From positions 2,112,001 to 2,176,000 of the forward strand of contig CAXXYH010000004.1 of the NCBI GenBank assembly GCA_963677925.2: 64,000 nt of DNA, given 5' to 3'. The stretch is from Spirochaetia bacterium. Its GTDB lineage: Bacteria > Spirochaetota > Spirochaetia > UBA9216. Numbering within the stretch: position 1 is the stretch's first letter; each line of letters begins with the position of its first letter. This document shows positions 6,901 to 48,083 of this stretch, one piece after another. A model generated the notes under the pieces. It did no database searches and was not told the origin of the DNA. It saw only the letters and a program-made list of their open reading frames with translations. The translations under genes were made by a program, and so were the position numbers.

Positions 6901-7159
6901 CGATGAGGCAATTACGCTGAACCCGGATAATATAGAAGCTATAAGGCTGAAAGACCGAATTTCAGCGGATGTCGGGGGTACTGCCACAGTTGTTATGTCC
7001 AGTGCCGATCAGCAGCGCTATCTTGAAGCTGTTAATGAATTCTCAGCCGGCAATTACCTTAAAGCCCGTATTATAGTGGAAAATCTTCTTCAGAATCCCG
7101 ATAATCAGCGTAACACCAAGATTCTTGAACTTAAGGAAAGGATTGACAGGACCAGATGA
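3935..7159 (+). CDS. Large exported helical/TPR-like protein
   Basis: 1074-aa ORF; signal-like stretch ILLIILLLNSALAFSGG suggests the true start is near 4120; TPR-like helices in C-terminal half; stop overlaps next start (ATGA). Confidence 0.75.
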   Translation: MSVVFLISFSFCDSILAESSINCRLIRSLFSADIMKRFTMPCRPDGETVSGRFCKVTEAYFLLKSAAGTLKIILLIILLLNSALAFSGGRQEGSVNQLAEAEELINQRQYNQAVLILSGMLKTSPDKLDEIQELLNRVRTEKELYNDRYEELLLTYGGDDVEAAYPIIKDLEDMDPDPNEATRESLVLARETAGFVFNNNRYNDIMEEAAGHMAAGQLTQAVNTYMSGFDLSRDIFNDAGYGNIIMNDVYEHTNQMDELSREFLTIYTALASSLGNETAVFDRRDLAEYPRTTAPILENLTRSIEIKNLLDELAVYFLEQEENIRISRGDDKQVHYLVYMNRLLMGRTDAQSPEGIVGAVNVNNTGVAETIRSHAVLLVEEAYSDALSHYSAGRYEQAGAGFSTVMTLAESVVQTFAVWDTGYTSFSGEIPDPNEDEQLNTIISNQVNNETWYSAAESYNSLIDENLAYQDLKQQINSLENPADGEQIRSVLVNHDRIITNLGDQWDSEYQRLNTIASTGLSIGPSVETTSGMLNEISRMEDDLLVDEIILVAAMAEADLSDYEVTLRGLTGIKDEGILLIDGVPAEDQNAAADDTGENAEEIQILYKYPDRALESLLQIQPAITRLAADISGIQNFIAEERIEIRTGEPVREALTHADTLDNSTTELDNEVEELIARAREQIFTADRLRQEGERRIQESKTLTQQAQFPAAKERLEQAAQKFDDSLTYQEDSVLRDYRDNDIPRLYEEIQVAENNLVIRQVRQYLTEGKSYYSQGKFPSAQNVLIKAKNRWADTNVEENAEVEYWLTLTQTALSVTSGRTISQTDPLYSEMNQYLSQAQADFIQAKSLYDQGRGEDADFYFSRAEQSILYVQQFFPFNEEARVLNLRISQYRDPESFRELFNNDFQTARSLISTNPRKAYIDLKDLEAINATYPGLQSAITEAEYASGIKVKPPDTTKINRSIELYQLAYSIVSRNVRSEFNVALSYLDEAITLNPDNIEAIRLKDRISADVGGTATVVMSSADQQRYLEAVNEFSAGNYLKARIIVENLLQNPDNQRNTKILELKERIDRTR

Positions 7160-10100
7160 TGTGCAGCGGACTGTTAAGAAAATTATTTATTTTTCTCATT
7201 ATTTTCATAAGCACCGCTGCCGCAGTGTCAGCCCAGGATTTCTACTGGGAACAGCAGGAGGTTCTTGTTGATAACGCCGCGTATTTCAGCCGCTCTGCAG
7301 CCGGAACCGAGCTGATGGCTGCTGTCTGGCAGGATCGCATACGGGAAACTGAAAACGGAGCTGAATACGGACTTTCAATAATCACTTCGACAGACGGACT
7401 TGAATGGAAAACTAACAAGCGTTTCCTCGGTCCGTTTTCCTACACGGGCAAGGAGAATTTTTTCTTTTCGCTTGCGGTTAATAAACAGGATATAATTTAT
7501 CTTGCTGTTTCAAACGATGACAACAGTATAAGCCTCTACCAGTCCTCCGACGGCGGAACAAGCTTTACCGAAAATTTCCGTTCTGATCCCTTTCCTGTAA
7601 AAACCAGTCCACGGCTGTCGCTGCGCAGTGACGGCGGGATGATTCTTTTTGTTACTCAGGAATCCAATGTCGATGAGTTCGGTTCGCTGGGAATATACTA
7701 TTCGGTATCCGATAACAGCGGCAGCACCTGGTCTGAATTCAGCCAGCTTGCGCCCGAAGCTGATTTGAAGGGAAACTTTCTGCCTTCCCACACTTCGTTC
7801 ATGGGCCGGGAATACGTGGCCTTCCAGGCCTTTCATCTTGGAACCACTTCTACCTTCCAGCTCTACCTGAAATACAGTGATGACGGCGGCCACTCGTGGT
7901 CTGATGCCGTTTATATATCAGGCTTCGAGGATGATAACGATCTCTATGATGGCGATCCCTATGTTTTTGACAACCAGCGGCCTTTTCTGCTGGGAAATAC
8001 AAGCGGTGTATACCTTGCCTGGGAACGAGGATATGCCGGAAACAACCCGCAGATTTATTTTGCTGAGCTGAACCGCAATGGATCGGTCACCGGATTCCCC
8101 GAACAGGTAAGCGGTGGAATAGCCGAATGCAGAAATCCGAGAATGTCCTATTACCGGGGAATGCTCACGCTTATATGGTTCGACAACAGGGCCGGAGACT
8201 ACCATAATATAATAGCCAGGCGTGACGGTGCGTTCTGGAGTACCAATGATCTCAACTATATTACCGCCGGCTCGTCGGTATTCGGAAATCTCCTCGTCCG
8301 GCAGGATGATTTATTTGTCATGTGGGAAAACACCATCTCAGAGAGGACCCGGCTTGTGCTTCTTTCACCTGACAAGACTGTGTCTGCTCCTGTTCTAAGA
8401 GCTGCTGATTTCCGCGCATCAACCCCGGCTAAGCAGGACAGCTTTACAGTACGCTGGAATACACCTGATGATTCATCAGGCATTGCCGGCTATTCATGGA
8501 CTTACGACCGGGATGAAAACTCAAAGCCCCGCGAAAGCCTTATGATGCTCGATCGTAACCGCAGCATAACCGTTGATGCTGATGACGACGGTTCATGGTT
8601 TTTTCATGTCATTGCCCAGGACTATGCCGGAAACTGGTCAGACACATCAACAATAGAGATTATCCGCGATACAACACCTCCGGGGACGGTTACTTTTAAT
8701 GAGCCTGAAAAGGATGAGCGGGATACGCTTCTTTCCAATACGCTTGCCCTGGGCTGGGAGCCTCCGCCCGAGGAGGATGTAGCCGGATACAGCTATACGC
8801 TGCAGGCTTTAAGCGGCTGGACCTACAGCGGCGAACTCGATGTCTTCAGACTAAGAACCCCGTCGGGCACTGTGCAGACATCCGGAACAAGCTATTCCTT
8901 CAGAAACATTGACAACGGGCTGTGGGCACTGAATGTCCGCGCTATCGATAATGTAGGAAATGCAGGTGAAGCGAATACCCTGTATTTCAGGCTTAACAAG
9001 TACATTCCGGTTACCTATATTACCAGCATAAACAGTAAGAAGGATGAACTTGGGACTCTTACTCTAGAAATTACCGGTCGCGGATTTTCAGTTGGTGGTC
9101 TTATTGAAGAAGTTATACTCGATACAGACGGCGCCGAGCCTTATGACTATGTCTTTACAAAGGATACCGATCTCTACAATGTTGTTGATGATCGGTTTAT
9201 TAGAGGTCCGCTTCTTGAGGATATACTTGCAGGTACTTACCGTGTAGGTCTTATTCATCCGGAACGCGGACTGTATTTCACCAGGACCGGGATAACCCTT
9301 GAATCAAGCGGAACTGTAAAATTCGGTGATTTTTCGGTTATTCCTGTTCCTCAGTGGCAGGTGGTGGAACAGAAACGCTTCAATATTCCGTTTAATTATC
9401 TGCTGATGGCGGTAGTGCTGATTCTGCTTGTCTTCCTTTTTATTTTTACACTGCAGCGGGCCTTTGCTCTTGCTGCTGAAGGCCGGACTCTGCACAGGCA
9501 GGCAGTAGCCCTTATTGAAGGGCAGCTGCTTTCCGAAGAAGAAAAACAGGAGAGGATTGCTCAGATGGCTAAAATGAGAATGGGGCTAAGATTCAAGTTT
9601 GCCCTGTGGGTAACATTACTGGTAATGCTTATAGTCGGAATGGTTGCAGTTCCTGTTGCGGTTGTCACTTCGGATAATCAGCGTCAGATTCTGGCAACGG
9701 GACTTGAAGAGAGGGCTGAGGTTCTGCTGGAAAGCATTACCAGCGGTGCGAGGACTTTTCTTCCTTCAGACAACATTCTTGAACTTAACAACCTGCCTTC
9801 ACAAATGTCCGCAATGGGTAAAGATGCAGTCTCTGTTACAATTACCGGCCACGGAGATACAGCTGCAGAAGGATATCAGCCTGACAAGTTTGACTATGTC
9901 TGGGTAACCAATGACGGCTCACTTCCCGAAGAAGCCCGGGGAACAACGGGAGTCTATCTGATGGAGGATGAAATTTCCTCGATTACAGATGAGCTGTCGG
10001 CCTCTGTAAACGAGCAGGCCGCCTCACGGGTAGGGCTCATTGTTGATGAAATTCAGCTTCTTAATGAACAGGTCGAACCTCTAGTTGACCGGTTTATCAG

Positions 10101-34905: not shown

Positions 34906-34978
<73 letters not shown>

Positions 34979-34990
34979 AAATAATTATTA

Positions 34991-35022
34991 TTGGTAGGAT
35001 AAAGATTTACTTATCCTACCAA
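34991..35022 (+). terminator. Element-supplied hairpin after the reconstituted tRNA
   Basis: Perfect 12-bp inverted repeat TTGGTAGGATAA / TTATCCTACCAA; no T-tract on the plus strand. Confidence 0.5.
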
Positions 35023-35104
35023 CGAAACTACCGGACAACCGGCGTTTCTCTAAATCCAAGATACAGATAACTTACAGAAGAAAGTTATCTTAAGGAGTTA
35101 GACG

Positions 35105-36433
35105 ATGCGTCGGTTTTCTGTTTATAAACGTAGTAACAGTCCTTATTACTACTGTCAAATCAAAAATCCAAAAACAGGTAAATATCTTCCACCCAAAAGT
35201 ACAGGTAAGGTTGATGAGGATGAAGCTCTCCTTGTAGTTGCTGATTGGATCAAATATGGGATGCCTCAGAAGGGGCAGCGACGTAACTTTGAAGACATCT
35301 TCATGTTTAGCTCTTTCATGAGCTACGTAGAGAGCTCTACGATAACTGAGAAAGATGCCTCAAGGATTGTAAATGTTTTAAAGAATAAAGGCTTGATTGA
35401 ATCGGTTATATTTACAAGTGATGGCCCAGACACCCAACCTCTTATCCCTTTTTTGAAAACATTCTGGAATTTTGAGAAATCCCCATATGTTAAAGAAAAG
35501 CATAGCTATGGTCAAAAAATTGGTCAGAGGCACTGCTATGAGCAATCTAAGAGACTTTCTCACTGGGAAGAGTATTTTATTGACTTTAGAATTAAGGACG
35601 TTGACAAGCAAGCATTGAAGGAATTTCAATTCTATTTAAGTGAAAAAGGGTTAGCTCCAAAAACTATAAATCATGTTCTAAGTGCAGGTCTTACTGCGTT
35701 TAAATGGATGTATGAAGATGAGAAGATTAAAACAGATCCTGGACATGGTTTAAAGAAGTTTTCCGGGGAATCTGAATCACGTGGAATCTTAACAACAGAA
35801 GAAACTAAAAAGTTGTTTACACTTGAATGGAAAGATGAAAGGGCAAGAATAGGGAATTTAGTTGCATGTACGACAGGCTTAAGAGCAGGAGAGGTCCTGG
35901 CTATTAAACCTGAAAATATTGGTGATGATCTATTGTATGTGAAACATAGTTTTTCAAGGATTGAAGATCTTAAAGATACAAAGAACCACGAAGAGGGGAT
36001 AGTCCCTCTTGTTCCTATAGTCAGGGAAGAACTTTTGAAGCTATCTAAAAAGAATACCTTTGGGACGAACGGATATATTTTTTATTCTGAGTCTCCTGAT
36101 AAGCCAATGAGTCAAAATATTCTTCGTAGAGGTCTTGAGGATGCCCTGATAAAGCTTAGAGCAGGAAATAATCCTAATGAGGATCAATCAAAAGAAGCTA
36201 TTAAATATTGGGAAGAAAGGAATGTCCTTTTCCATTCTTGGCGTCATTATTATGCAACCCATCTTGCAGAGCGAGTTGATCTAAGAACAGCACAGATTGC
36301 CATGAGACACAAGACAGAGGCTATGACAAAGCATTATTCAAACCATGTGCAGACAGAGCGGATGAAAGAAATTGCCGCAGCGGTAGGGGATGCATTTGGA
36401 AACATTATTGAATTTTCGAGAAAAAGAGCATAG
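35105..36433 (+). CDS. Tyrosine recombinase/integrase
   Basis: TGLRAGE (R), DTK (K), FHSWRH (HxxR), RH..MTKHY (H, Y). Confidence 0.93.
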   Translation: MRRFSVYKRSNSPYYYCQIKNPKTGKYLPPKSTGKVDEDEALLVVADWIKYGMPQKGQRRNFEDIFMFSSFMSYVESSTITEKDASRIVNVLKNKGLIESVIFTSDGPDTQPLIPFLKTFWNFEKSPYVKEKHSYGQKIGQRHCYEQSKRLSHWEEYFIDFRIKDVDKQALKEFQFYLSEKGLAPKTINHVLSAGLTAFKWMYEDEKIKTDPGHGLKKFSGESESRGILTTEETKKLFTLEWKDERARIGNLVACTTGLRAGEVLAIKPENIGDDLLYVKHSFSRIEDLKDTKNHEEGIVPLVPIVREELLKLSKKNTFGTNGYIFYSESPDKPMSQNILRRGLEDALIKLRAGNNPNEDQSKEAIKYWEERNVLFHSWRHYYATHLAERVDLRTAQIAMRHKTEAMTKHYSNHVQTERMKEIAAAVGDAFGNIIEFSRKRA

Positions 36434-36529
36434 TACACTATATATGGTATGAAGGAGTGGGCATATGTGTATATATACACTATATATAATGACATATGTA
36501 AATATACATGGTACAATCTTATAGTAATC

Positions 36530-37054
36530 ATGGAAGATATAGATAAGAAAATTTATTTATCAGTAAATTTAGATAATTTGAAAAGAGTAACAGGGATGCC
36601 TTTTCGGTTGATGTCAAAGGCTTCAGGTATCCCTTGGACGGATTTTAGACGGTATATTAGTACTAATAGATTACCATTAAAGGTTGCTGTAAAACTCGAA
36701 ACTGTCTGTGTACGATACATCAATGCTCAAGATTTCTATTTACACCAAGGTGTTAAAAGTAATAGAGCATTACTTCTTTTAGAGAAGAATTGTAAAATGA
36801 GCTCTTGGTTTTCTCATGAGGAATGCGGTAATAAAATAGTTACTTTAGAAGCAGGCTTATTGAAAGCTAATGAAAAGATGAAAAGCGGAAATGCAAATGA
36901 ATTGGAAAAAATGTCCTTTTTAATCAATCAACATAGAGTTTCTTGTGAGTGGCAAATCCTAGGAGAATCTTGGGGTGAAGCTGAGTTTTCAGCATTTGCA
37001 GAAAGAGGGCTAAGAGCGCTTGATAGAAGAATTGAAGAAAGTATGTCTGATTAA
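36530..37054 (+). CDS. Hypothetical protein, possible N-terminal HTH
   Basis: ORF after int; likely start MEDIDKK; NLKRVTGMPFRLMSKASGIPW resembles an XRE-like HTH. Confidence 0.5.
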   Translation: MEDIDKKIYLSVNLDNLKRVTGMPFRLMSKASGIPWTDFRRYISTNRLPLKVAVKLETVCVRYINAQDFYLHQGVKSNRALLLLEKNCKMSSWFSHEECGNKIVTLEAGLLKANEKMKSGNANELEKMSFLINQHRVSCEWQILGESWGEAEFSAFAERGLRALDRRIEESMSD

Positions 37055-37223
37055 GACATAAGATAATATATCTTATCAGCACCAGGCACACCGAACTTCG
37101 GAAGTTGCCACACTGATAAGATAGGAAGTACACATTGTTGATGTAGTTGCTTCTAGAAGGTTGATAAGGTAGACCGGACTCCAAATTAAACTCCTGATTA
37201 CAGGGGCGGGGAGGTCTATCATT

Positions 37224-37451
37224 ATGACGATAGATTCACTCAATTTAGTTTCACATCTCTTAAATTACTCAGAATGCGCTGAGTATCTTGGTGTGAAAGA
37301 AACCACACTTAGAATCTGGGTTTCCCAAGGTAAGGTTCCGTATACCAAGATTGGACGAAGTGTAAGATTTACTTCCGAACAAGTAAATGAAATTCTCGAA
37401 AATGGCCGTCATGAGGCTACAGCGAGGTGTATCAATGAAAAAAATAATTGA
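37224..37451 (+). CDS. Excisionase-like HTH_17 DNA-binding protein
   Basis: LLNYSECAEYLGVKETTLRIWVSQGKVPYTKIGRSVRF; GGAGG RBS. Confidence 0.88.
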   Translation: MTIDSLNLVSHLLNYSECAEYLGVKETTLRIWVSQGKVPYTKIGRSVRFTSEQVNEILENGRHEATARCINEKNN

Positions 37452-37632
37452 TGCAGCCTTTAACTGGGTACTGAAACAAAAAGTTGAATATGGAGAAGTA
37501 ACTCTTAAATTTATTTTTCATGATGGACAACTTAGGCAAATCGAAAGGGATCTTAAGGAAAAGATACAAGTTTCTTATGAAAATAGATCGAACAACGTAA
37601 AGATCTGTAAAAAAGGGGGAACGCATGAATGA
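37435..37632 (+). CDS. Small protein (DUF2292/YezD-like)
   Basis: EYGEVTLKFIFHDGQLRQIER; GAGG RBS; overlaps both neighbours. Confidence 0.55.
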   Translation: MKKIIDAAFNWVLKQKVEYGEVTLKFIFHDGQLRQIERDLKEKIQVSYENRSNNVKICKKGGTHE

Positions 37633-38308
37633 ACTACCTAAGTATAGTCTATCCCCTAATAGGTTCGATGTGGATTATTTCTTAGAATACTGTAAGGATA
37701 AAGCCCTGACATTTAAAGAACTGATTGAACTGATCCCCCATTTTTCTTTTAAAACAGTGATTGATGAACACCATAATGGCCGGAAGAAAAAATATTCTGA
37801 GGAATTAGCCATTCAGTTTTGTATTCTATTATTTGAATATAAATCAATTTATCCGGTATTAGCGAAATTAAGCGTTAACAGGACAACTATTTGGAAGTGG
37901 AGACGCCTTTATATCGAGTTTGATAATATGTTCAGATTTACAATGAATTGTATTTTCATAAAAGAAGAAAAAAAACCTTATTCTCAGCATTATAAAAAGC
38001 AACAAAAAATCCACACTAATGCTTCACCGAAAAAAAAAGGTACAACTGGAGCTCAAACTAAGTATAAACCAGAATATAACAGATTCGTAAAATCCTCACT
38101 TAGTAAAACGGCAAAGACTTTAGGTGTTAGTAAAAGAACAATAGTTACATGGTGTAATAAGTATCCCGAATTTAAAATGGCCCAAACAATAAAAAGTGTT
38201 GAGAGAGCACTTCAATTATTGTGTATAGAAGTTGACAAACAAGAAAGAGTATATTCAGCATTTTTAAAATACTCTAAATTAAGAGAGGAGTTTACTGCGC
38301 ATGAGTAA
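37625..38308 (+). CDS. Tandem HTH protein resembling terminase small-subunit DNA-binding domains
   Basis: Two similar units: GRKKKYSEE..LSVNRTTIWKWRRLYIEF and GAQTKYKPEY..LGVSKRTIVTWCNKYPEF. Confidence 0.55.
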   Translation: MNELPKYSLSPNRFDVDYFLEYCKDKALTFKELIELIPHFSFKTVIDEHHNGRKKKYSEELAIQFCILLFEYKSIYPVLAKLSVNRTTIWKWRRLYIEFDNMFRFTMNCIFIKEEKKPYSQHYKKQQKIHTNASPKKKGTTGAQTKYKPEYNRFVKSSLSKTAKTLGVSKRTIVTWCNKYPEFKMAQTIKSVERALQLLCIEVDKQERVYSAFLKYSKLREEFTAHE

Positions 38309-39500
38309 TGACACAATTCAAATACTTGATTTGTTTAAAAACCGCCCTCTCGTGAATGGTATAGATTGTCTTTCATATAAGCAGTTATTAGAAAAAAAAG
38401 CTGAAAATAGTCATCAGCAAAGAAAAGACAAGAAACAGCCCCTTGCAGAGATACGAAACTTTAAGGAAATTCCACGAGAGGACATTAGTTGGCTTTGGCC
38501 TGGACGAATAGCACTTGGAAAATTATCTATGTTAGCTGGAGATCCAGGGATATCAAAAAGTCTTGTCACAATAGATATCGCAGCTCGACTTTCTAATAAT
38601 TCTAATTTCCCAGATGGTGTTCCTGCTCCTATAGGTGATACGATTTTTTTGAGTTTAGAGGATGATCCATCGGATACCATTAAACCAAGACTTGAAGCTG
38701 CGAAGGCCGATTTAGCCAGATGTCATTTTTTAGATAGTAAACTTGTTTTTAGCAATCAAGGAGCTGTAAAAAAAGAACTATTTACGTTAAGGGATCTTGA
38801 TGTTCTCTCTGATGCCTTAAATCAAATTCTCTCTGGAGGTGGAACACCTCTACTATTAGTTATTGATCCTATTGATAGTTTTCAGGTGGCTGTTGATTCA
38901 AATACCAATGATGTTAGAACCATGCTTGCACCAATAGCTGATTTTGCATCTAAACATAATATTGCTGTTCTTTTTATTAAGCATCTCAATAAAAACACAA
39001 AAAATTCAGTTGCATATAGAGTTAATGGTCATATCAGTTATACGGCAGTAACTAGATCAAGTTGGATTTTGTTAAAAGATCCAAAAGTTACTGATAAGCG
39101 TCTATTTTTATGTATCAAAAATAATATTGGCAAAGATAATAACGGATTATCGTATACTATAAAAGATGATGATACAGGGATTCCATATCTGGAATGGAAT
39201 AAAGATATAGAGGTCCGGACTCCTGATGAAATATTATCTGAAGTATATGGAGCAAGAAATAATTCTATTCAACGGGATCAGGTTCTTAAGTTCTTATCAA
39301 TGAATGGTAAAAGTAAAGCAAGTGAAATTGCTGCTTATATTGGTTCTTCATTATCTTCAACTTCGAATATTCTTAAGAAGATGCTCAGTAGTGGTGTGAT
39401 ATCTAACATTGGATATGGGGAATACGATATTTCACCACCTGAAAAAGCTGATAAAAGTGGTGAAAGTGATGAAAGTGATGAAACTCATAAAAGTAAATAA
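38301..39500 (+). CDS. AAA_25 / RepA-like SF4 helicase-ATPase with C-terminal winged helix
   Basis: WLWPGRIALGKLSMLAGDPGISKS (Walker A), LSLEDD, LLVIDP (Walker B), HLNK, KNN. Confidence 0.85.
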   Translation: MSNDTIQILDLFKNRPLVNGIDCLSYKQLLEKKAENSHQQRKDKKQPLAEIRNFKEIPREDISWLWPGRIALGKLSMLAGDPGISKSLVTIDIAARLSNNSNFPDGVPAPIGDTIFLSLEDDPSDTIKPRLEAAKADLARCHFLDSKLVFSNQGAVKKELFTLRDLDVLSDALNQILSGGGTPLLLVIDPIDSFQVAVDSNTNDVRTMLAPIADFASKHNIAVLFIKHLNKNTKNSVAYRVNGHISYTAVTRSSWILLKDPKVTDKRLFLCIKNNIGKDNNGLSYTIKDDDTGIPYLEWNKDIEVRTPDEILSEVYGARNNSIQRDQVLKFLSMNGKSKASEIAAYIGSSLSSTSNILKKMLSSGVISNIGYGEYDISPPEKADKSGESDESDETHKSK

Positions 39501-39660
39501 TTAATGGTTGGATGATTTAGCCGTAAACGTTATGTTTACGGCTAATTTACATACTTGTTAGACCAATTGGATAATATCCTAAATCTTTCCATTTCCAGTA
39601 TCAAAATCTGAATGTGAAAGTTGAATTATGAAGAAGTTTCATCACTTTCATCAGATTCAC
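39430..39660. repeat. Iteron-like direct and inverted repeats (candidate origin)
   Basis: 9-bp tandem GAAAGTGAT units; exact 18-bp inverted pair 39468-39485 / 39635-39652; 12-bp-arm palindrome 39517-39545. Confidence 0.6.
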
Positions 39661-39770
39661 TAGGCTTTAAATAAGTGAAATAAAAATTGGAAGTTGATAG
39701 CTAATTTCACAGGTACAGTGTAGATTAGGTTAATTCTTCTAATGTAAAGCGGTTTGAATAAATCGACGAA

Positions 39771-40355
39771 CTATAATCCATCAGTATCTATTTTCCCTTG
39801 TCTGAAGGTTAAAGCACGTTTTTGTGACATATAAGTGATTGACACTTGCCATTCTGAACTATGTGAGCTGTAATGTGCTGTTACACTAATAGTATCATCT
39901 TCAATCTCCCAAGTTGTTGTATAGAAGGAGGGTTTTCCTCTTAGTACTTCCTCTGTTAATTCTATTGTACCTGGTTTCAAATCGGGAAGAGCACTCCAAC
40001 TGGACTTTCCATAGACTCTATCTAATTTGTTACATAAGTCATAATATACATCAAAGCATTCGTAGGCATCTTTGGGATTACCAAGTTTTATCAAATACGT
40101 ACTATTAAAAAACTCCCGATCCGTGAATGCGAAAGTCATAGCTACATCATAACCTGCGACAGAATTATTCGAATATTCCAAAAGTGTGTAATCGCTTCCC
40201 TTTACGTTTTCTTCTCTGATTTTATCAGGTTGACCTTCTTGAGCTATAACATCTTCAGGAGATAAACCAAAAGAGAGGTTTCGAAATTTAAGTTCTTCTG
40301 AATAGGCAAAGGCTGTAGTTATTAAAATAATGCATACAAGTATTATTCTCCTCAT
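39771..40355 (-). CDS. Exported hypothetical protein
   Basis: Signal peptide, FRNLSFGLSPEDV N-terminus, AGGAG RBS. Confidence 0.7.
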   Translation of the reverse strand: MRRIILVCIILITTAFAYSEELKFRNLSFGLSPEDVIAQEGQPDKIREENVKGSDYTLLEYSNNSVAGYDVAMTFAFTDREFFNSTYLIKLGNPKDAYECFDVYYDLCNKLDRVYGKSSWSALPDLKPGTIELTEEVLRGKPSFYTTTWEIEDDTISVTAHYSSHSSEWQVSITYMSQKRALTFRQGKIDTDGL

Positions 40356-40526
40356 ATCAACTCCTGGTGATTAATTATCACGATCTGTAATTTCCTGTTT
40401 GAATTTACTCTGGTAAATGCAAAAACACAAGAGTAAATATGGCTTTTTAGACCAACTATATAGAATTATAGTTTCTTGGATTAGTAGTAAAACCCTATTA
40501 CGATGTACATCAATGGGGAAATAGTT

Positions 40527-40844
40527 ATGAGTGTACTACATCCGCTGTCTGTAAATTTAAAGAAATTACGGAAGCAAAATAATATGACACAAGCTATGCT
40601 TGCAGAGAAGATTGATGTAACCACTGCCTTTATAACTGATATTGAGATTCAGAAAAAATACCCCTCACTCAGAAATTTAGAAAAGATTGCCGATGTTTTT
40701 GGTGTTGAACCATTTGAGCTTATAATGCCGGAACAGCAGGCATTATCCTTGGAAGATAAAAAATATATATCAATGAAATATGCATCCCGAATACGAGAAT
40801 TAGCCGATGAGATTGAAAATGAATTGTCTGATTTAGACAATTAA
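40527..40844 (+). CDS. XRE-family HTH regulator
   Basis: NLKKLRKQNNMTQAMLAEKIDVT..IE..KYPSL..LEKIADVFGV. Confidence 0.9.
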   Translation: MSVLHPLSVNLKKLRKQNNMTQAMLAEKIDVTTAFITDIEIQKKYPSLRNLEKIADVFGVEPFELIMPEQQALSLEDKKYISMKYASRIRELADEIENELSDLDN

Positions 40845-41442
40845 CCGAAAACTTGAACTTTTTCATAAAGAATATACATTTTTTGTTTTATATTTTAGAA
40901 AATTATTTAGATGGTATAATTCAATATCTTTGCAATAGTTATATGTTTCCGAATGAATTTGCCACAAGTAAAAACGGTTTGATAACAGCCATTAATAAAT
41001 ATAATCAAAAATACAATATAGTTGCTTCTTTTTTGGTCTTTTGAGAACAATCTAATTTTTTTAATTCTTTTTCACGATTAGTAAATTTCATGCTATGATA
41101 CCCTTATTCTTTCATTGAAATTGACTCAAAAATGAAGGATTGCAGGTAAAAAAGATGTTAGCTACAAATAATAATCTTTGTGAAAGGGTATTATTATGAG
41201 GCGTTTTACAGAAGTAGGAAGATTTATTCAAAATTATTATTACTATTGTTCTCAAAATGAGTGTGATTTGATTACCTTCTATGATTTAATATTATTTGAA
41301 GGCCGCATGGTGCATGATAAATTAAACGACTGCCCTTATTTGGTTATATTTGATATGAATTTTATTGAATACTACCTTACGATATTTAAATATCTAATAA
41401 CAATTTTCATATTTCCCGAAAATAAGTATAGGTGTACTCTTG

Positions 41443-41991
41443 ATGGATAAAATTAATGTAACAGTTCTATTTAGTGGTGGAATAGATTCAACTGCATGTA
41501 TAAACATGTTTCATGGTAAACAGTATAAGATAAAACTTTTATATATTGACTATGGTCAAAAAAGTTGTGAGATGGAAAAGAAGACTGTTTTGAATATTGC
41601 CAATGAAATGAATCTTCCAATCTCAATTAGAAAATATTACAGTGAACATATATATTCAGTTGGAGAGATCCTTGGCAGAAACCTTTTTTTGTTGAGTGCT
41701 GCATTGTTAGAACAAACATCCGCTGGTCTTATTGCAATGGGGATACATGCAGGGACTAATTACTATGATTGTTCGATTGATTTTTTTAATCTTGCTTCGA
41801 GCCTCATCAGCAATTATAGCGCTGGCCAAATAGCTTTTGTAGCGCCCTTTATTGAATGGAATAAGAAAGAAATATGGGAATATTCCAAACTGAATAATTT
41901 AGATAGATATAAAACATATAGCTGCGAATTGGGGTTAATACAACCTTGTAAAAAATGTTTAAGCTGTAAAGATTTGGAGTTTTTAAAATGA
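41443..41991 (+). CDS. cap9: QueC-like protein (type IV CBASS Cap9)
   Basis: PP-loop SGGIDS, DYGQ, GRN, YYDC, Zn motif TYSC-x7-CKKCLSC; overlaps the TGT-like gene. Confidence 0.85.
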   Translation: MDKINVTVLFSGGIDSTACINMFHGKQYKIKLLYIDYGQKSCEMEKKTVLNIANEMNLPISIRKYYSEHIYSVGEILGRNLFLLSAALLEQTSAGLIAMGIHAGTNYYDCSIDFFNLASSLISNYSAGQIAFVAPFIEWNKKEIWEYSKLNNLDRYKTYSCELGLIQPCKKCLSCKDLEFLK

Positions 41992-43004
41992 TAGCTAGGA
42001 AATCTGTAATTTTCCATAAAGAGAGTGGAGTTAAAATTGATACTCCACTGTTAATCCCTTCATTTTCAAGTAAAGGGTTCGTCTTTGACAGTAAAGGTAA
42101 TAGTGAAATAAATAAGATTTATAAAACTTCTAGTGAATTCTTCACTAGAGCATGTTTGGTAAGTGCATATGATATTCATTACAATCATATTAAAGACCCT
42201 TTTAATTTTGAATCTATACCAGAAGTATTCTTTTTAGATAGTGGTGGCTATGAAGTCTCCGAGACAGATGATTTTTCAGCAGTAGTTCACACTCCTTCAC
42301 AGTCGAAAGAATGGAATAAAGAAAAATATCGGCAAGTTTTATCAGAATGGCCTGATGAATATCCAAGCGTCTTTATAAGTTATGATCATCCAGATGACAG
42401 AAAATCTTTAGAGGAACAATTAAAGTCGGCAGATGAAACCTTCAGTCAATATAAGAATAGATTGAGTTTATTTTTATTAAAACCTGAAAAGAATACAGAA
42501 CACACCTTGAAAAGTGTTTTAAAAAAGGTATATTCAAACATTGATTCTCTACGGGGTTTTGATATTATTGGTATAACTGAAAAAGAAATCGGCTCATCGA
42601 TTTTAGATCGGATGGAGAATATCGCGAGATTTAGAATAGCATTAGATGAAGCTTCAATCCAAACACCTTTACATATTTTTGGAGCATTAGATCCCATTAG
42701 TGTTTGCCTATATTTTCTTTCAGGTGCAGAAATCTTTGATGGATTAACATGGTTACGTTATTCTTACCATGAGAGTACTTGTATTTATCCTCATAACTAT
42801 GGATTTATTAATTTAGGTATTCAGGCAGACGAAAAAAGAATAAGGGTAAAAAGTGTTAGTCAAAATATAATCGAATTAGAAAATATTGAATATACTTTAA
42901 GAGAGTATTTAAATACTAAGAATTTTAAAAAATTTGGACTCCATGCAGATAAAATTGAACAAGCTTTAGATCGACTTGAAACTAAAGTGAAAGGAGTAAA
43001 ATGA
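41988..43004 (+). CDS. cap10: tRNA-guanine transglycosylase-like protein (type IV CBASS Cap10)
   Basis: TPLLIP, FLDSGGYE, LHIFG, IFDG TGT-barrel motifs; lacks the CxCxxC Zn site of housekeeping TGT. Confidence 0.8.
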   Translation: MIARKSVIFHKESGVKIDTPLLIPSFSSKGFVFDSKGNSEINKIYKTSSEFFTRACLVSAYDIHYNHIKDPFNFESIPEVFFLDSGGYEVSETDDFSAVVHTPSQSKEWNKEKYRQVLSEWPDEYPSVFISYDHPDDRKSLEEQLKSADETFSQYKNRLSLFLLKPEKNTEHTLKSVLKKVYSNIDSLRGFDIIGITEKEIGSSILDRMENIARFRIALDEASIQTPLHIFGALDPISVCLYFLSGAEIFDGLTWLRYSYHESTCIYPHNYGFINLGIQADEKRIRVKSVSQNIIELENIEYTLREYLNTKNFKKFGLHADKIEQALDRLETKVKGVK

Positions 43005-43939
43005 TGGGTGGATCAGGCAGTATTTGGGGTAGCATTGATCCTGCTACTGAGATTGAAAAAATAAGAAAGGCTGGAGAATCAAATTTGAATGCAGGAGTGG
43101 ATACAGAAGTAAATTCATTTCTTGCAAAACTACTAGTTGGATTTAATGATAGAGATGTTGAGACAATAAATTCGATTCTTGATGAAATAAAAAATGATTT
43201 AAAAGAAGTGATTTCTGATACTATAGATATTCTTTTTGGAGGGTCTATTCATAAAAATACTTATATTGAAGGATTAAGTGACATAGATTCTTTGATTTGC
43301 TTAGATAATCATATTTTTAAGGATAAATCACCCAATGAGGTTAAAAATATTCTTAAAGTTGAAATGGAAAAAAAATTCGGTAAAGAGAATGTAAAGGTTG
43401 GTAATCTTGCTGTTACTATCAATACCAAAGGATATGAAATTCAATTACTACCAGCTATTAAAGAGCATGATACTATAAAAATTAGTTCTTTCGATGGTAA
43501 TAATTGGTCTAGAATAAATCCAAAAAACTTCACAGATATCTTAACAAAAGTGAATAAAAGAAATAATGGCAATGTTATTCCGGTTATTAAATTGGTTAAA
43601 TCTATCATTAGTTCTCTTCCAGAACAACAACAATTAAGTGGGTATCATATAGAATCTTTAGCTGTGAATATCTTTAAGGATTACGATAATATTAAAACTT
43701 ATAAAGAAATGGTGAAGCATTTTTTTATAAGTGCAGTCAAAGAAGTAAAAGAGCCAATTTATGACAAATCAGGGCAATCTTTATTTGTAGATGATTATTT
43801 AGGTCCTTCTAATTCAATTAAGAGAAGGTTGATATCAATATCCCTTGATAGAATTGCTAGGAAAATTCGGAATTTAGATGGCTTAGATAATGGGAATTTA
43901 GTATTGGATACTTGGTCAAGGCTTCTGAATCATGAGTAA
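43004..43939 (+). CDS. cGAS/DncV-like nucleotidyltransferase (CD-NTase, SMODS)
   Basis: FGGSIHKNT..LSDID (GS..DxD), EIQLLPA, NPKNF, VIPVIKLVK, SGYHIE; Gly-rich N-terminus MGGSGS. Confidence 0.88.
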   Translation: MGGSGSIWGSIDPATEIEKIRKAGESNLNAGVDTEVNSFLAKLLVGFNDRDVETINSILDEIKNDLKEVISDTIDILFGGSIHKNTYIEGLSDIDSLICLDNHIFKDKSPNEVKNILKVEMEKKFGKENVKVGNLAVTINTKGYEIQLLPAIKEHDTIKISSFDGNNWSRINPKNFTDILTKVNKRNNGNVIPVIKLVKSIISSLPEQQQLSGYHIESLAVNIFKDYDNIKTYKEMVKHFFISAVKEVKEPIYDKSGQSLFVDDYLGPSNSIKRRLISISLDRIARKIRNLDGLDNGNLVLDTWSRLLNHE

Positions 43940-44480
43940 ATTAAAAGATGAAATAGATAGACAGTATAGGGTCATTGATATGATGATATCGATGCATTCG
44001 TTAGCACGGGATGATAAAAAGCTAAAAAGTAAAACATTAGATGTTACTTTACTTTTATTCTCAGTAATTACATGTGCTCTTCTCCTTTCGGAATACACGA
44101 TATCAACCATTTTGCCTGTGAATGAGAATTTCGTTGAAATCTGTACGGCGTTGTTCTCAATGATAGTCTTTTTTTTATCATTGTTAGAATACAAATTGGG
44201 TTGGAAAGAAGAAAGAGTTTTACACGATTCTGCAGTAAAAAAACTGAGTTTATTAAAAACGAGATATAGACAAGTTTATATTTCAGGAACAATCAATTTT
44301 AACCTTAACAGACTTTTTAATAGTGTTATGAAGAGTATTCATCCCATCCCGGAAAAAGATTTTTTAAAATATAAGGCTAAACATTTATACAAAATTGAAG
44401 TTAGTAAAGCGTTGTCAGGCAATCCAGGAATTTCGATAATTCTACTTAGATTGAAAATTAAATTAGGACTATATAATTGA
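43932..44480 (+). CDS. 2-TM SLATT-like CBASS membrane effector
   Basis: H..AR followed by two TM helices and a W.E...H motif; overlaps the CD-NTase stop. Confidence 0.7.
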   Translation: MSKLKDEIDRQYRVIDMMISMHSLARDDKKLKSKTLDVTLLLFSVITCALLLSEYTISTILPVNENFVEICTALFSMIVFFLSLLEYKLGWKEERVLHDSAVKKLSLLKTRYRQVYISGTINFNLNRLFNSVMKSIHPIPEKDFLKYKAKHLYKIEVSKALSGNPGISIILLRLKIKLGLYN

Positions 44481-45115
44481 AAGACTTAGAATATAGCATA
44501 ATTGAAAAATATTTAGAAATTAAGGAAACTGTAATAGCAAATGGTTATGAGTATGAAATTGAATGGCAGGAAGATATTAAAATTCAAGACATCAACGAGA
44601 ATGCATTTCTAAAAGAATATGTATGGGTTATTCTGTCTTCAGGTTTTAAAGAGCGTGTAGTTAGAAGGATATTCAAAGATATTTCCGAAATATTTAACTC
44701 ATGGTCAGAGATTTCATACTTAAATACAATTAAAGATAACTGCAAAGATGCCGCATTACGAGTTTTTAATAATAAAAGTAAAATAGATAGCATTTGTGAA
44801 ATGATTGACTATATTGATAAAAATGGTTTTGAAGAATTAGAGTATAATATTTATAAAAGCAATGTTGATTTTTTTTATAAATTTAAATATATCGGTCCGA
44901 TTACTGTAATACATCTATTTAAGAACTTAGGTATTTCTGTAGTCAAACCTGACCGCCATTTGATAAAGATATCAAATGCATTAGGTGTTAATTCACCTAA
45001 TGATTTATGCAATTTAGTTGCCCAATTCACGGGAGATGATCTAAAAGTAATTGATTTGATCCTATGGAGATGGGCTACTATAGTTCCAAACTATATCAAT
45101 CTTTTAAAAAAATAA
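44477..45115 (+). CDS. cap11: HhH N-glycosylase/DNA-lyase (OGG-like, type IV CBASS Cap11)
   Basis: EYVWVILSSG, NKSK, HhH FKYIGPIT..HL, KPDRHL, DLILW. Confidence 0.78.
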   Translation: MKDLEYSIIEKYLEIKETVIANGYEYEIEWQEDIKIQDINENAFLKEYVWVILSSGFKERVVRRIFKDISEIFNSWSEISYLNTIKDNCKDAALRVFNNKSKIDSICEMIDYIDKNGFEELEYNIYKSNVDFFYKFKYIGPITVIHLFKNLGISVVKPDRHLIKISNALGVNSPNDLCNLVAQFTGDDLKVIDLILWRWATIVPNYINLLKK

Positions 45116-45294
45116 TTTGGATTTAAAGGCATATACAAGAATCTTAATATTAAGGTGTAAATATAGTTTATTAATTGGTTTGCTAAGTGTTATCAGATTT
45201 GAAAAATGTTAAAGGTAGTCAAATCATAGGGTCAGCTAGGCACATTATGACCAGAATGGTGAATTGATTAGGTTATTATGTAAAAGAGGGAAAA

Positions 45295-47634
45295 ATGTTA
45301 GAAATTGTGAGTGGTTTAGGTATTGGGTTAGGTAAAGTATTTGCAAAATATTTAATAGAAAAATTTAATAAAAATAATTCAAATCTAAGGTCATTAATTG
45401 CAAATGAAATTATTGATACCTTAAAACCAATAAAAGTTAAAGAAGATAATGTGATAACTACATCTACTGACAAAGTATTAGTAGTGATATCACATACTAA
45501 CATTTCTGAAAACACGAAGAAGGCTATTCTTGTTGAAGTAATTTCACTTTTATCAAGAGTGAATACTGAAATGTCATATCTATCAAAATTTTTTTTTAAT
45601 CCTCATCTATATGCTGCGGAAATTAAGAAAATGAGCAGTTCAAATATTTCAATGTTTTCTAAAGATGAAATTTATATTTTTGATCAAATGGTTTTTATAG
45701 CTTGTGAATCAATCATGAAAATATCAGAGAGTTTCTCAGGTTTTTTACATTACTCTGTCAGATCAATTTTTCAAAATCAGTCCGACATCCATAATGAGAT
45801 AAAGAAAATAGGAGCAAATATTAAATTATTAGAAGAATATATACTAAATGATGAATATCTCACCTCTGACTCATTCGAGATGAAATATAAAGAATTTTTA
45901 CAGACTAAATATAATAAATTCGAACCATTCGGTTTAAGAATATACGATATGATTTTTGAAAGTATAAAATTAACTGATGCATTCACAGAGCTTGATTTAA
46001 AAATATCTATCGATATTGATATGGGCAAAGATAATATAGAAAATAGAAATGATGAATTTATTAAATTATATATAGATGAAGATAACGAATTTATTAAATA
46101 CTATATTGAGGATAATAAAGGATTATTTAAAATTGAAAAGACATTAGATGGAAAAAAGCTTACTGGTCAGTCTAAAAATGATGAGGATAATAATCGTGAA
46201 TTAATTAAAAAGGATCATGATGGTGAATTTATTGAATTACCAAAATTTCAATTAGAAAATATCATTCATAATTTACTTGATGACAATTCTCAGAGGAAAT
46301 ATAAAAAGCAAGTTTTGACAATCAATGAGATATTACCTAACGAAAGGCGATTAATGATAGTTGGTCTGCCTGGTTCTGGGAAATCAACATTATTACAATG
46401 GCTAGTTGTAAATATCTCATCATTGAAGAATGAAAATAAGATAAAATACTGGGGAGATTCTATTCCCTTTTTTATTCGGTTAAGATCTTGTTAAAATGGA
46501 AAGTTCCCGCCTCCTGAGGAATGGTTAAGTTTAGAAGCAAAGAATATTCAATCATTGATGCCAAAGAATTGGATTCATAATTTAATGGGGAAAGGTAGAG
46601 TTGCATTATTCATCGATGGTATTGATGAAATTAGTCCAAGCGCTAGAGAATCTTTATTAAAAGAATTATCTGAATTAGTCCAACTATATCCATTATTAAG
46701 ATTAGTTATAACTTCACGTCCTACCGCTGTTGATAATCGTAGTTGGCCTGAATGGAATGTTTGGTTGTTAAAAGAAGGATTTCTTAAAGCATCAATTAAC
46801 GAGTATACAAAAGAACAAATAAATAGTTTTATTCATTCTTGGCACAAAACTCTTGCGAATTCAGTCAGTAATAAGGAGAATAATGATAAGTTGTTAAGTA
46901 ATGCAGATTCCTTAATCAGTATATTGAATGAACGTAGTGACCTGAGTAGATTGGCGACAAATCCATTGTTATGCTCTATGATATCTGCAATATTTTATGT
47001 AAAAGATGGCGAGTTGCCTGAAAATAGAATTGAGTTATATCAAAACTGTATTGAAGTACTACTTGAGAGTCGGGATAATAAACGTGAAATTGATTTGTCA
47101 CACTTTAAGTTATTTAAAAGTATAAATAATAAAATTCTATTAGTTCAATACTTGTCGTATTGGATGATGGATAATGGTAAAGTTGACTTGACCAAAGAAG
47201 AAATAATACAATGCTTTTTACATCGGTTGCCTATTTCAGGCATATCTAATGATGAAATTAATAATATTTTTGATTACTTTATTGAAAGAAGTGGTTTGTT
47301 GACTGAATATATGACAAACAGGTATATTTTTATTCATTTAACTTTCCAAGAATACTTTGCAGCTTTAGAAGGTCTGTATGCATACAACATTGGCTCATTA
47401 GCTCAAAAGGTAATGTTTGACCATTGGCATGAAGTGATAAAATTAACCATTGGAGTAGCTAGACCACATGAACGTAAGGAACTTGTCACAAAGATAATAG
47501 ATGTAGGTATGATGAGTCCATCAAAAGAAACCAAAATGATAATCTCTAATGTATTAGAACAATCATTGGAGATATGTTTAGATAAAAATGAAAGACTTAT
47601 TCGTGATGTTGAATATTATAAAAATAGTTTTTAG
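45295..47634 (+). pseudogene. NACHT (NLR-like) NTPase interrupted by in-frame TAA at 46492-46494
   Basis: Both ORFs are in the same frame; Walker A GLPGSGKS and PFFIRLR precede the stop; FIDGIDE, ITSRP, NPLL and FIHLTFQEYFAA follow; the gap reads NGKFPPPEEWL.. Confidence 0.85.
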
Positions 47635-47998
47635 AGTGATTCACTCTCGGGAGAGATAAATATTTTAAATTGGAATTGAATATAGGGTGATGAAGTATCT
47701 AATTTTATTAGACATAGGAAATAGTATCTGTAATAACCAGAAAACATCGTTATAGAGAAATTTAACGATAGGACCCTATTGTGCTGTTTTGAAAGATACC
47801 TATGGTTGAACAATTACTGATGGAGGTTTGTCTGAATCGAGTAATGAAATTCACAGATAAAAGTTACAGATAGAACCCGGAAAATGGGTCAATATAGAAA
47901 AATACTCATATACGATCATAAACAAACTCTTGAAATATCTCTTTTCATCATCTACACTTGTTTACATAGAGAAATGTCGGGATACACGGTGGACCGCT

Positions 47999-48040
47999 TT
48001 TTCATCCCGGCAACAGGGGTTCAACTCCCCTAGGAGATGC
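47999..48040 (+). repeat. attR core (displaced 3' half of tRNA-Glu)
   Basis: Exact 42-bp copy of attL, here continuing to CCA at 48040-48042. Confidence 0.95.
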
Positions 48041-48048
48041 CAAATATT

Positions 48049-48083
48049 AAGGACTGTTTCTTGACGGAAACAGTCCTTTTTTT
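48049..48083 (+). terminator. Original tRNA operon terminator
   Basis: AAGGACTGTTTC / GAAACAGTCCTT stem with T-tract immediately after attR. Confidence 0.85.

Follow-up and report, generated by a model that had tools for sequence, protein, structure and literature searches.

Type IV cyclic oligonucleotide-based antiphage signalling systems (CBASS) were characterised with a Rhizobiales operon by Wassarman et al. (bioRxiv 10.1101/2025.04.06.647259). In this system Met1 of the cyclase CdnD, a cGAS/DncV-like nucleotidyltransferase (CD-NTase), is removed and Cap9 joins 7-carboxy-7-deazaguanine (CDG) to the amine of Gly2, which yields a 7-amido-7-deazaguanine (NDG) tag of +176 Da. The tagged CdnD tail is bound by Cap10 in a pocket of the TGT type. 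An M(G/S)G(G/S)GG extension was reported on all type IV cyclases, defence was abolished by the substitution G2D or by deletion of the motif, and loss of Cap9 both raised toxicity and abolished defence. Cap11 is optional and occurs in about a third of the systems. Here, a type IV CBASS operon is described from a window of 64,000 nucleotides (nt), the whole stretch of DNA analysed, of the genome of a Spirochaetia bacterium (assembly GCA_963677925.2, contig CAXXYH010000004.1, positions 2,112,001 to 2,176,000). The cyclase gene cdnD is preceded by two adjacent in-frame ATG codons. It is proposed that translation starts at the second, at position 43004 of the window, that Gly2 of the product is tagged and that the first ATG is a by-product of the overlap with cap10. 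To this reading as a whole a probability of roughly 0.8 is given.

Judged by homology of the predicted products, the operon is canonical for type IV CBASS and complete, with the order cap9-cap10-cdnD-2TM effector-cap11 (2TM, two-transmembrane). The five genes are co-directional, overlapping or abutting, and all frames are open. Their positions and best matches are the following.

41443..41991, forward strand: cap9, QueC-like deazaguanine-protein ligase (Pfam QueC 3.1e-25; PADLOC QueC 6.6e-59; PDB 9nto_B 4.7e-40).
41988..43004, forward strand: cap10, TGT-like, by homology the binder of the modified N-terminus (PADLOC TGT 4.3e-112; PDB 9ntn_A 5.6e-65).
43004..43939, forward strand: cdnD, CD-NTase (Pfam SMODS PF18144 1.3e-11; NCBIfam CBASS_cyclase_b 244.1 bits against a cut-off of 200; PADLOC cyclase 1.4e-108; PDB 9ntn_G 2.5e-58).
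43932..44480, forward strand: 2TM (SLATT-like) membrane effector (PADLOC Effector 2TM 2e-32; Pfam SLATT_4 below cut-off).
44477..45115, forward strand: cap11, OGG-like, with a candidate TTG start (PADLOC OGG 3.3e-71).

The predicted Cap9 counts 182 amino acids (aa), and its motifs SGGIDS, GRN and YYDC align with those of 9nto_B, the SxGxDS loop and the Y/D pair for deazaguanine recognition both being present; residues S18, D22, S23, R86, Y115 and D117 are identical to those of 9nto_B in the HMMER alignment. Counted in the same manner along the alignment with 9ntn_A, the base-reading residues D73, S74, D122 and K154 of Cap10 and its catalytic pair H226/D248 are all identical. No Pfam model matched Cap10; the failure of the TGT model fits a remodelled TGT. 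In CdnD, GGS aligns with GGS and GLSDIDS with GLSDVDC of 9ntn_G, and the metal-binding Asp pair D94/D96 (DxD) is identical. The functional roles of these key residues in Cap9, Cap10 and CdnD are taken from Wassarman et al. (bioRxiv 10.1101/2025.04.06.647259). The first-pass annotation had stated that Cap9 attaches the base to the N-terminal Gly and that Cap10 binds the modified end; this agrees with the published work, and the genes concerned are homologues of Cap9, Cap10 and CdnD that carry the key residues. Cap11 had no match by sequence in Pfam, NCBIfam or PDB (best PDB E-value 0.27). For cap9 itself two adjacent in-frame start candidates were seen, TTG at 41440 and ATG at 41443, with no clear Shine-Dalgarno (SD) sequence upstream.

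At the cap10/cdnD junction the letters of the window DNA read aaaggagtaaaatgatgggtggatcaggc and the doubled ATG is present. The elements of the start site, with the two start candidates designated ATG1 and ATG2, are arranged as follows.

42991..42996, forward strand: SD sequence AAGGAG, within the final cap10 codons (K-G-V-K), with a spacer of 7 nt to ATG2 and 4 nt to ATG1.
42997-43000, forward strand: spacer taaa between AAGGAG and ATG1.
43001..43003, forward strand: ATG1, the first in-frame ATG, formed by the final A of the cap10 Lys codon AAA together with the TG of the stop codon; probably little used.
43002..43004, forward strand: cap10 stop codon TGA, which shares its last base with ATG2 (TGATG) and its first two with ATG1 (ATGA).
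43004..43006, forward strand: ATG2, most likely the cdnD start codon, based on gene call, PADLOC profile and SD spacing.
43007..43009, forward strand: Gly2 codon GGT, predicted NDG acceptor after Met removal, aligning to residue 1 of 9ntn_G.
43004..43042, forward strand: CdnD N-terminal tail MGGSGSIWGSIDP, whose counterpart in the Rhizobiales CdnD is MGGSGGSFGSGFDP.

Directly 3' of ATG2, GGT GGA TCA GGC occupies positions 43007-43018. The arrangement AAGGAG-taaa-ATG-ATG-GGT-GGA-TCA-GGC, with its spacings and the TGATG overlap, had been reported in the first-pass annotation and was confirmed in full in the window sequence. No RNA structure marking the start site was found (z = 0.17; 110 of 200 shuffles fold as well).

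The translation start of cdnD is most likely the second ATG, at 43004. The list of open reading frames (ORFs) opens a frame at the first start codon after a stop and so places the start at 43001, with a product of 312 aa. That this start is wrong and 43004 the real one had been proposed beforehand, and it was borne out by the gene call, the N-termini of the family, the PADLOC profile and the SD spacing. The protein collection's gene call for the host genome (P0001) is 100% identical, 311 aa long and begins MGGSGSIWGS. In the alignment with the crystallised CdnD chain 9ntn_G, which lacks Met, residue 3 of the 312-aa ORF falls on residue 1, the modified Gly2 of the Rhizobiales protein, and residues 1-309 counted from 43004 match positions 1-308 of the PADLOC cyclase profile PDLC00790. 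An N-terminal extension of the M(G/S)G(G/S)GG kind is found, as MGGSGS, only with the start at 43004.

The N-termini of homologues were compared for the 120 best of 701 proteins at E <= 1e-10, a comparison that the earlier annotation had asked for. M-G/S/A opens 116 of the 120 (104 MG, 8 MS and 4 MA). The four exceptions were two upstream-extended calls with an internal ...MMGGSGG or ...IMGGSGG, one 5'-truncated protein and one beginning MMGGSGG. A second set was made of genome loci, for which the best 80 of 220 relatives were taken and the cdnD start and cap10 stop were located in each; with the window added, it counts 81. A Gly/Ser-rich tail heads cdnD in all 80 genome loci. Because of this and of the 116 homologues with M-G/S/A, the Gly/Ser-rich N-terminus is not a product of chance.

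For the SD statistics, 4325 ORFs of at least 150 codons in the host genome were considered and 1035 were kept in which no other start candidate lies within 40 codons of the first start codon. The unambiguous starts led by AGGAG (n=181) were distributed over spacers of 4 nt (2 starts), 5 nt (26), 6 nt (51), 7 nt (39) and 8 nt (23). Spacing in this host therefore peaks at 6-7 nt, and 7 nt is about 20 times as frequent as 4 nt. Among the 66 starts led by AAGGAG, 17 have a spacer of 7 nt and none one of 4 nt. Of the 81 loci, 60 have GGAG no more than 22 nt from the M-G start, with a spacer of 5-11 nt in 59 of these (mode 6-7) and of 2 nt in the remaining one, while spacers of 3-4 nt occur in 0 of the 60. 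Loci without GGAG are mostly from Bacteroidota or Ignavibacteria.

That ATG1 would be the main start, giving a protein MMGGSGS..., is scarcely credible in the light of these results. In its favour, ATG1 precedes every other ATG of the open frame and overlaps the cap10 stop as ATGA; it is contradicted by the family N-termini, the 311-aa gene call, the SD spacing and the alignment to the Met-less CdnD, and also by the loss of defence upon G2D or motif deletion in Wassarman et al. (bioRxiv 10.1101/2025.04.06.647259).

By analogy with the Rhizobiales system, Gly2 of the spirochaete CdnD is very probably the attachment site of the 7-deazaguanine. The first-pass annotation had named this glycine as the modified residue, and homology supports it, Gly2 aligning with Gly2 of the Rhizobiales CdnD; we infer the modification itself, as we do Met removal and binding by Cap10, from the likeness of the two systems. 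In the proposed mechanism, AAGGAG 7 nt upstream would serve ATG2, and the one-base overlap TGATG would couple translation of cdnD to that of cap10; ATG1 would lie too near the SD sequence for much use. Met removal would expose Gly2 of the MGGSGS tail, and Cap9 with ATP would join CDG to the alpha-amine of Gly2 to give NDG. The tagged tail would then enter the Cap10 pocket, and CdnD would be held inactive in a 2:2 complex until infection. The biology of deazaguanylation was already published in 2025 and the start-site result adds little to it. For annotation, it means that the M-G/S codon is best taken as the start of type IV CBASS cyclases; choosing the first ATG by rule lengthens the spirochaete CdnD by a Met that would hide the acceptor Gly.

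The presence of a second ATG was considered against the way in which cap10 and cdnD overlap in the family. In 79 of the 80 genome loci cap10 lies directly upstream of cdnD on the same strand; the flank of L049 was too short, and in L040 cap10 is 1.7 kb off. With the window counted, 80 cases were scored for the position of the cap10 stop relative to the cdnD start, and in 70 of them it lies between -4 and +5 nt. A one-base overlap was found in 36 cases, as TAATG in 20, TGATG in 15 and TAGTG in one, the last in L031, where the cdnD start is GTG overlapping TAG. In a Thermoplasmata metagenome-assembled genome (MAG; L038), ATA stands at the conserved start position (I-G-S-G-G-G) and no canonical start codon is present there. 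ATGA overlaps occur in five loci (L018, L045, L057, L069 and L074), all five with Ser (AGY) at CdnD residue 2. Gly (GGN) at residue 2 bars ATGA, so that the one-base overlap is the tightest available and TGATG and TAATG dominate. Such tight coupling of cap10 and cdnD is in keeping with a 2:2 complex of their products, and the title of PMC10666635 makes the same general point.

With a TGATG overlap, the codon that precedes the start is NTG, N being the last base of the final cap10 sense codon. ATGATG was present in 5 of the 81 loci (the window, L001, L002, L021 and L052), in every case as TGATG after a cap10 codon ending in A; a tandem ATG was also seen in proteins P0087 and P0008. Of the 15 loci with TGATG, 5 have A ahead of the overlap, 2 have G, 8 have C and none has T, where 2.8, 4.1, 4.6 and 3.5 are expected from the third positions of cap10. 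ATGATG is not enriched over this composition (P(A >= 5) = 0.12), and the extra ATG thus shows no sign of selection. Codons able to start translation (ATG, GTG, TTG) at -1 numbered 7, fewer than the 10.4 expected (P = 0.051), in a small sample with related rows. An explanation of the excess of C before TGATG as avoidance of alternative starts was rejected as unproven at P = 0.051 with 15 rows, several of them related. The first ATG looks like a by-product of overlapping genes, a chance outcome once the TGATG overlap exists.

A role for ATG1 in tuning had been suggested in the earlier annotation, in which initiation there gives an MMG isoform that escapes modification. A large second residue prevents cleavage by methionine aminopeptidase, and Met-Met is therefore retained; by dual initiation the untaggable MMG product would determine how much CdnD is held by Cap10 and how much is free. 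Such tuning is very improbable and is not supported by the comparison of loci. In its favour, the two ATGs follow one another in the same frame and each shares bases with the cap10 stop (ATGA and TGATG), and the tandem recurs in the four further loci and the two proteins just named. In the abstract of Huber et al. 2019 (PMC6728339), both ATGA and TGATG are named as overlapping stop/start arrangements, with translational coupling as a potential benefit. The toxicity and the loss of defence that followed Cap9 loss in Wassarman et al. argue that an untaggable form is not neutral; by the same Cap9-deletion phenotype, however, this form is expected to be harmful, a liability. Against dual initiation stand the rarity of the tandem (5 of 81 loci, always TGATG with a preceding A), the lack of enrichment over base composition and the number of start-capable codons at -1, which is if anything lower than expected. 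Moreover, the 20 loci with TAATG have no canonical start at -1, and the 4-nt spacer that ATG1 would require occurs in 2 of the 181 AGGAG-led host starts.

The supply of the donor base in this host was also considered. CDG is made by FolE, QueD and QueE. In the host genome, which is 99.63% complete, the only match to PF06508 is cap9 itself, and no canonical QueC was found apart from it. None of five NCBIfam models for QueE reaches its cut-off. A QueE profile of our own was built from ten rows, nine distinct genes, of type IV hosts, which match it by construction; its member genes score 223-297 bits and the best host ORF, NrdG, 48 bits. The weak matches to QueE models in the host, rejected as QueE, were NrdG, MoaA, two SPASM maturases and a glycyl-radical activase. 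A QueD equivalog was found at C3:959447-959791 (94.9 bits against a cut-off of 89.25), TGT at C1:31195-32265, QueA at C1:102346-103371 and a YhhQ-family transporter at C3:853792-854277, and QueF gave a sub-threshold match only (24.5 bits). By these assignments the set of TGT, QueA, YhhQ-family transporter and QueD equivalog is of the type that salvages queuosine precursors. Of the three enzymes for CDG, QueD was present and QueE was not detected, and no search was made for FolE.

No full-length QueC was found in 20 relatives searched, and a Cap9-like gene in only one of the 20, the genome of L001, which belongs to the same family and another genus. In the genomes of 80 type IV hosts, whose completeness is not given and among which our QueE profile misses some that bear QueC (4 in each of two sets), a full-length QueC (E <= 1e-25) was found in 51 and a QueE-like gene (E <= 1e-18) in 60. 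Neither was detected in 12, the L001 genome included, and a QueE-like gene without canonical QueC was found in 17. Altogether 29 of the 80 are without full-length QueC, a number from which no enrichment of QueC loss in type IV hosts is concluded. In the three hosts with QueE and without QueC that were viewed (G053, G040 and G047), QueE stands among housekeeping genes. Beside the type IV operon, QueE was found in 3 of the 80 loci, in two of them with QueD, and all three hosts lack a canonical QueC:

L050 (Actinomycetospora isolate): QueD 5104-5508 and QueE 5521-6225, beside the operon.
L041 (Solirubrobacteraceae MAG): QueE and QueD 5072-6135, beside the operon.
L097, the same locus as L044 (Dehalococcoidia MAG): QueE 6834-7679, minus strand, beside cap9.

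Several points weigh against the proposed reading. By the models used, the known CDG route is not detectable in the host. Position 6 of the N-terminal extension is Ser and not the published Gly; of 116 homologues, 23 have Ser at this position. The cap10 C-terminus KVKGVK is common to the window and its nearest relative, L001 (61% identity), and their tandem ATG, as far as the sequences tell, is one inherited state and not independent evidence. Given the ATGA overlap of ATG1 and the cap10 stop, ribosomes may to some extent reinitiate at ATG1. Finally, for the spirochaete CdnD the start codon, the removal of Met and the +176 Da adduct are all predictions from sequence.

The absence of a detectable CDG route brings forward another explanation, that the acceptor is intact and remains uncharged, or is charged only under certain conditions. 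The host would then be unable to make CDG, and the island that carries the operon would be a recently acquired and idle system, or one dependent on imported or phage-made 7-deazaguanine. This is considered unlikely. It is in line with the lack of QueE and canonical QueC in a genome of 99.63% completeness, with the lack of full-length QueC in the 20 relatives searched and with the salvage-type genes of the host (TGT, QueA, YhhQ-family transporter and the QueD-like gene). The three of 80 loci that bring their own QueE, two with QueD too, suggest that donor supply matters, and the island is low in GC and mobile. On the other hand, Cap9 and Cap10 retain all their residues for catalysis and CDG recognition and the five frames are open, which argues for ongoing selection. 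The 12 of 80 type IV hosts that are likewise without detectable QueE and QueC point to another CDG source or to incomplete detection, and our QueE profile is known to have missed hosts with QueC, 4 in each of two sets.

It could further be speculated, though this is rather doubtful, that in the spirochaete and its closest type IV-bearing relative NDG charging depends on 7-deazaguanine from outside or made by a phage (by FolE, QueD and QueE), so that tagging would report donor availability and not be constitutive. The operons with their own QueE (3 of 80, two with QueD) fit a system limited by donor supply. No discussion of the source of the Cap9 substrate in natural hosts was found in the literature searched, which did not extend to supplements or to the Science version of the deazaguanylation paper. 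That no CDG route is detectable in this host, in the nearest type IV-bearing relative and in 12 of the 80 hosts, and that a few operons bring QueD or QueE of their own, is a side result that may matter. The preferred reading remains a start at 43004 with Gly2 as the tagged residue.

The operon lies on a low-GC integrative island of about 13 kb, flanked at both ends by directly repeated copies of the tRNA-Glu 3' part. Between 35 and 48 kb of the window the GC content is 27-37%, compared to 42-43% for the two large contigs. Island and neighbouring features are the following.

34931..48049, no strand: the integrative island.
34906-34978: tRNA-Glu.
34931-34987 and 47993-48049: 57-nt direct repeat of the tRNA 3' part, 91% identical.
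35105-36433: tyrosine integrase.
37224-37451: HTH_17 excisionase-like ORF.
38301-39500: AAA_25 protein.
40503..40844, forward strand: helix-turn-helix (Cro/C1-type) protein upstream of the operon, a possible regulator (Pfam HTH_3 3.1e-15; PADLOC HTH_VI 2.6e-14 and capH 9.9e-10).

The cargo of the island consists of the CBASS operon and a NACHT gene. This NACHT/STAND NTPase gene (45295-47634) is interrupted by a single TAA in frame (46492-46494), shortly behind the Walker A motif GLPGSGKST. This leaves two ORFs in the same frame, 45295-46494 and 46555-47634; the gene may be a pseudogene or may genuinely consist of two parts.

Among the systems described, the Rhizobiales type IV CBASS (9NTN, 9NTO) is the one that shares the five gene families and the key residues of Cap9, Cap10 and CdnD with the spirochaete operon, at E-values from 4.7e-40 to 5.6e-65. 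The two differ at the tail, MGGSGGS...DP in Rhizobiales and MGGSGS...DP in the spirochaete, which is one residue shorter and has S at position 6. Along the N-terminal CdnD helix at the Cap10 interface, R15 of the Rhizobiales protein is replaced by A and S18 by I, whereas R22 is kept, as read from the alignment. Unlike the Rhizobiales system, the spirochaete cdnD has an extra in-frame ATG before its start. The published Rhizobiales work was moreover done in E. coli, whereas the present host is a spirochaete without detectable QueE or canonical QueC.

More distant parallels are found in other defence systems. In type II CBASS the E1/E2-like Cap2 likewise primes the cyclase by a covalent change of a terminal Gly-rich tail, as pointed out by Wassarman et al., but Cap2 acts on the CD-NTase C-terminus, and chemistry, enzymes and protein end all differ from those of type IV; no Cap2-like gene was found in the Pfam and PADLOC scans of the window proteins. 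For QatBC of the qatABCD system, PMC13279940 likewise proposes modification of the N-terminus of a partner by a QueC-family enzyme. According to that paper, QatC has two Thr in place of the Y and D for CDG recognition, whereas the window Cap9 keeps YYDC, and the genes QatA and QatD of qatABCD are not present at the spirochaete locus. Thoeris/TIR operons, as reported by Yirmiya et al. (bioRxiv 10.64898/2025.12.03.692087), contain the same trio of cap9, cap10 and cap11 together with a signalling enzyme whose tail is rich in Met-Gly; that enzyme is a TIR protein there and the canonical CD-NTase in the spirochaete operon.

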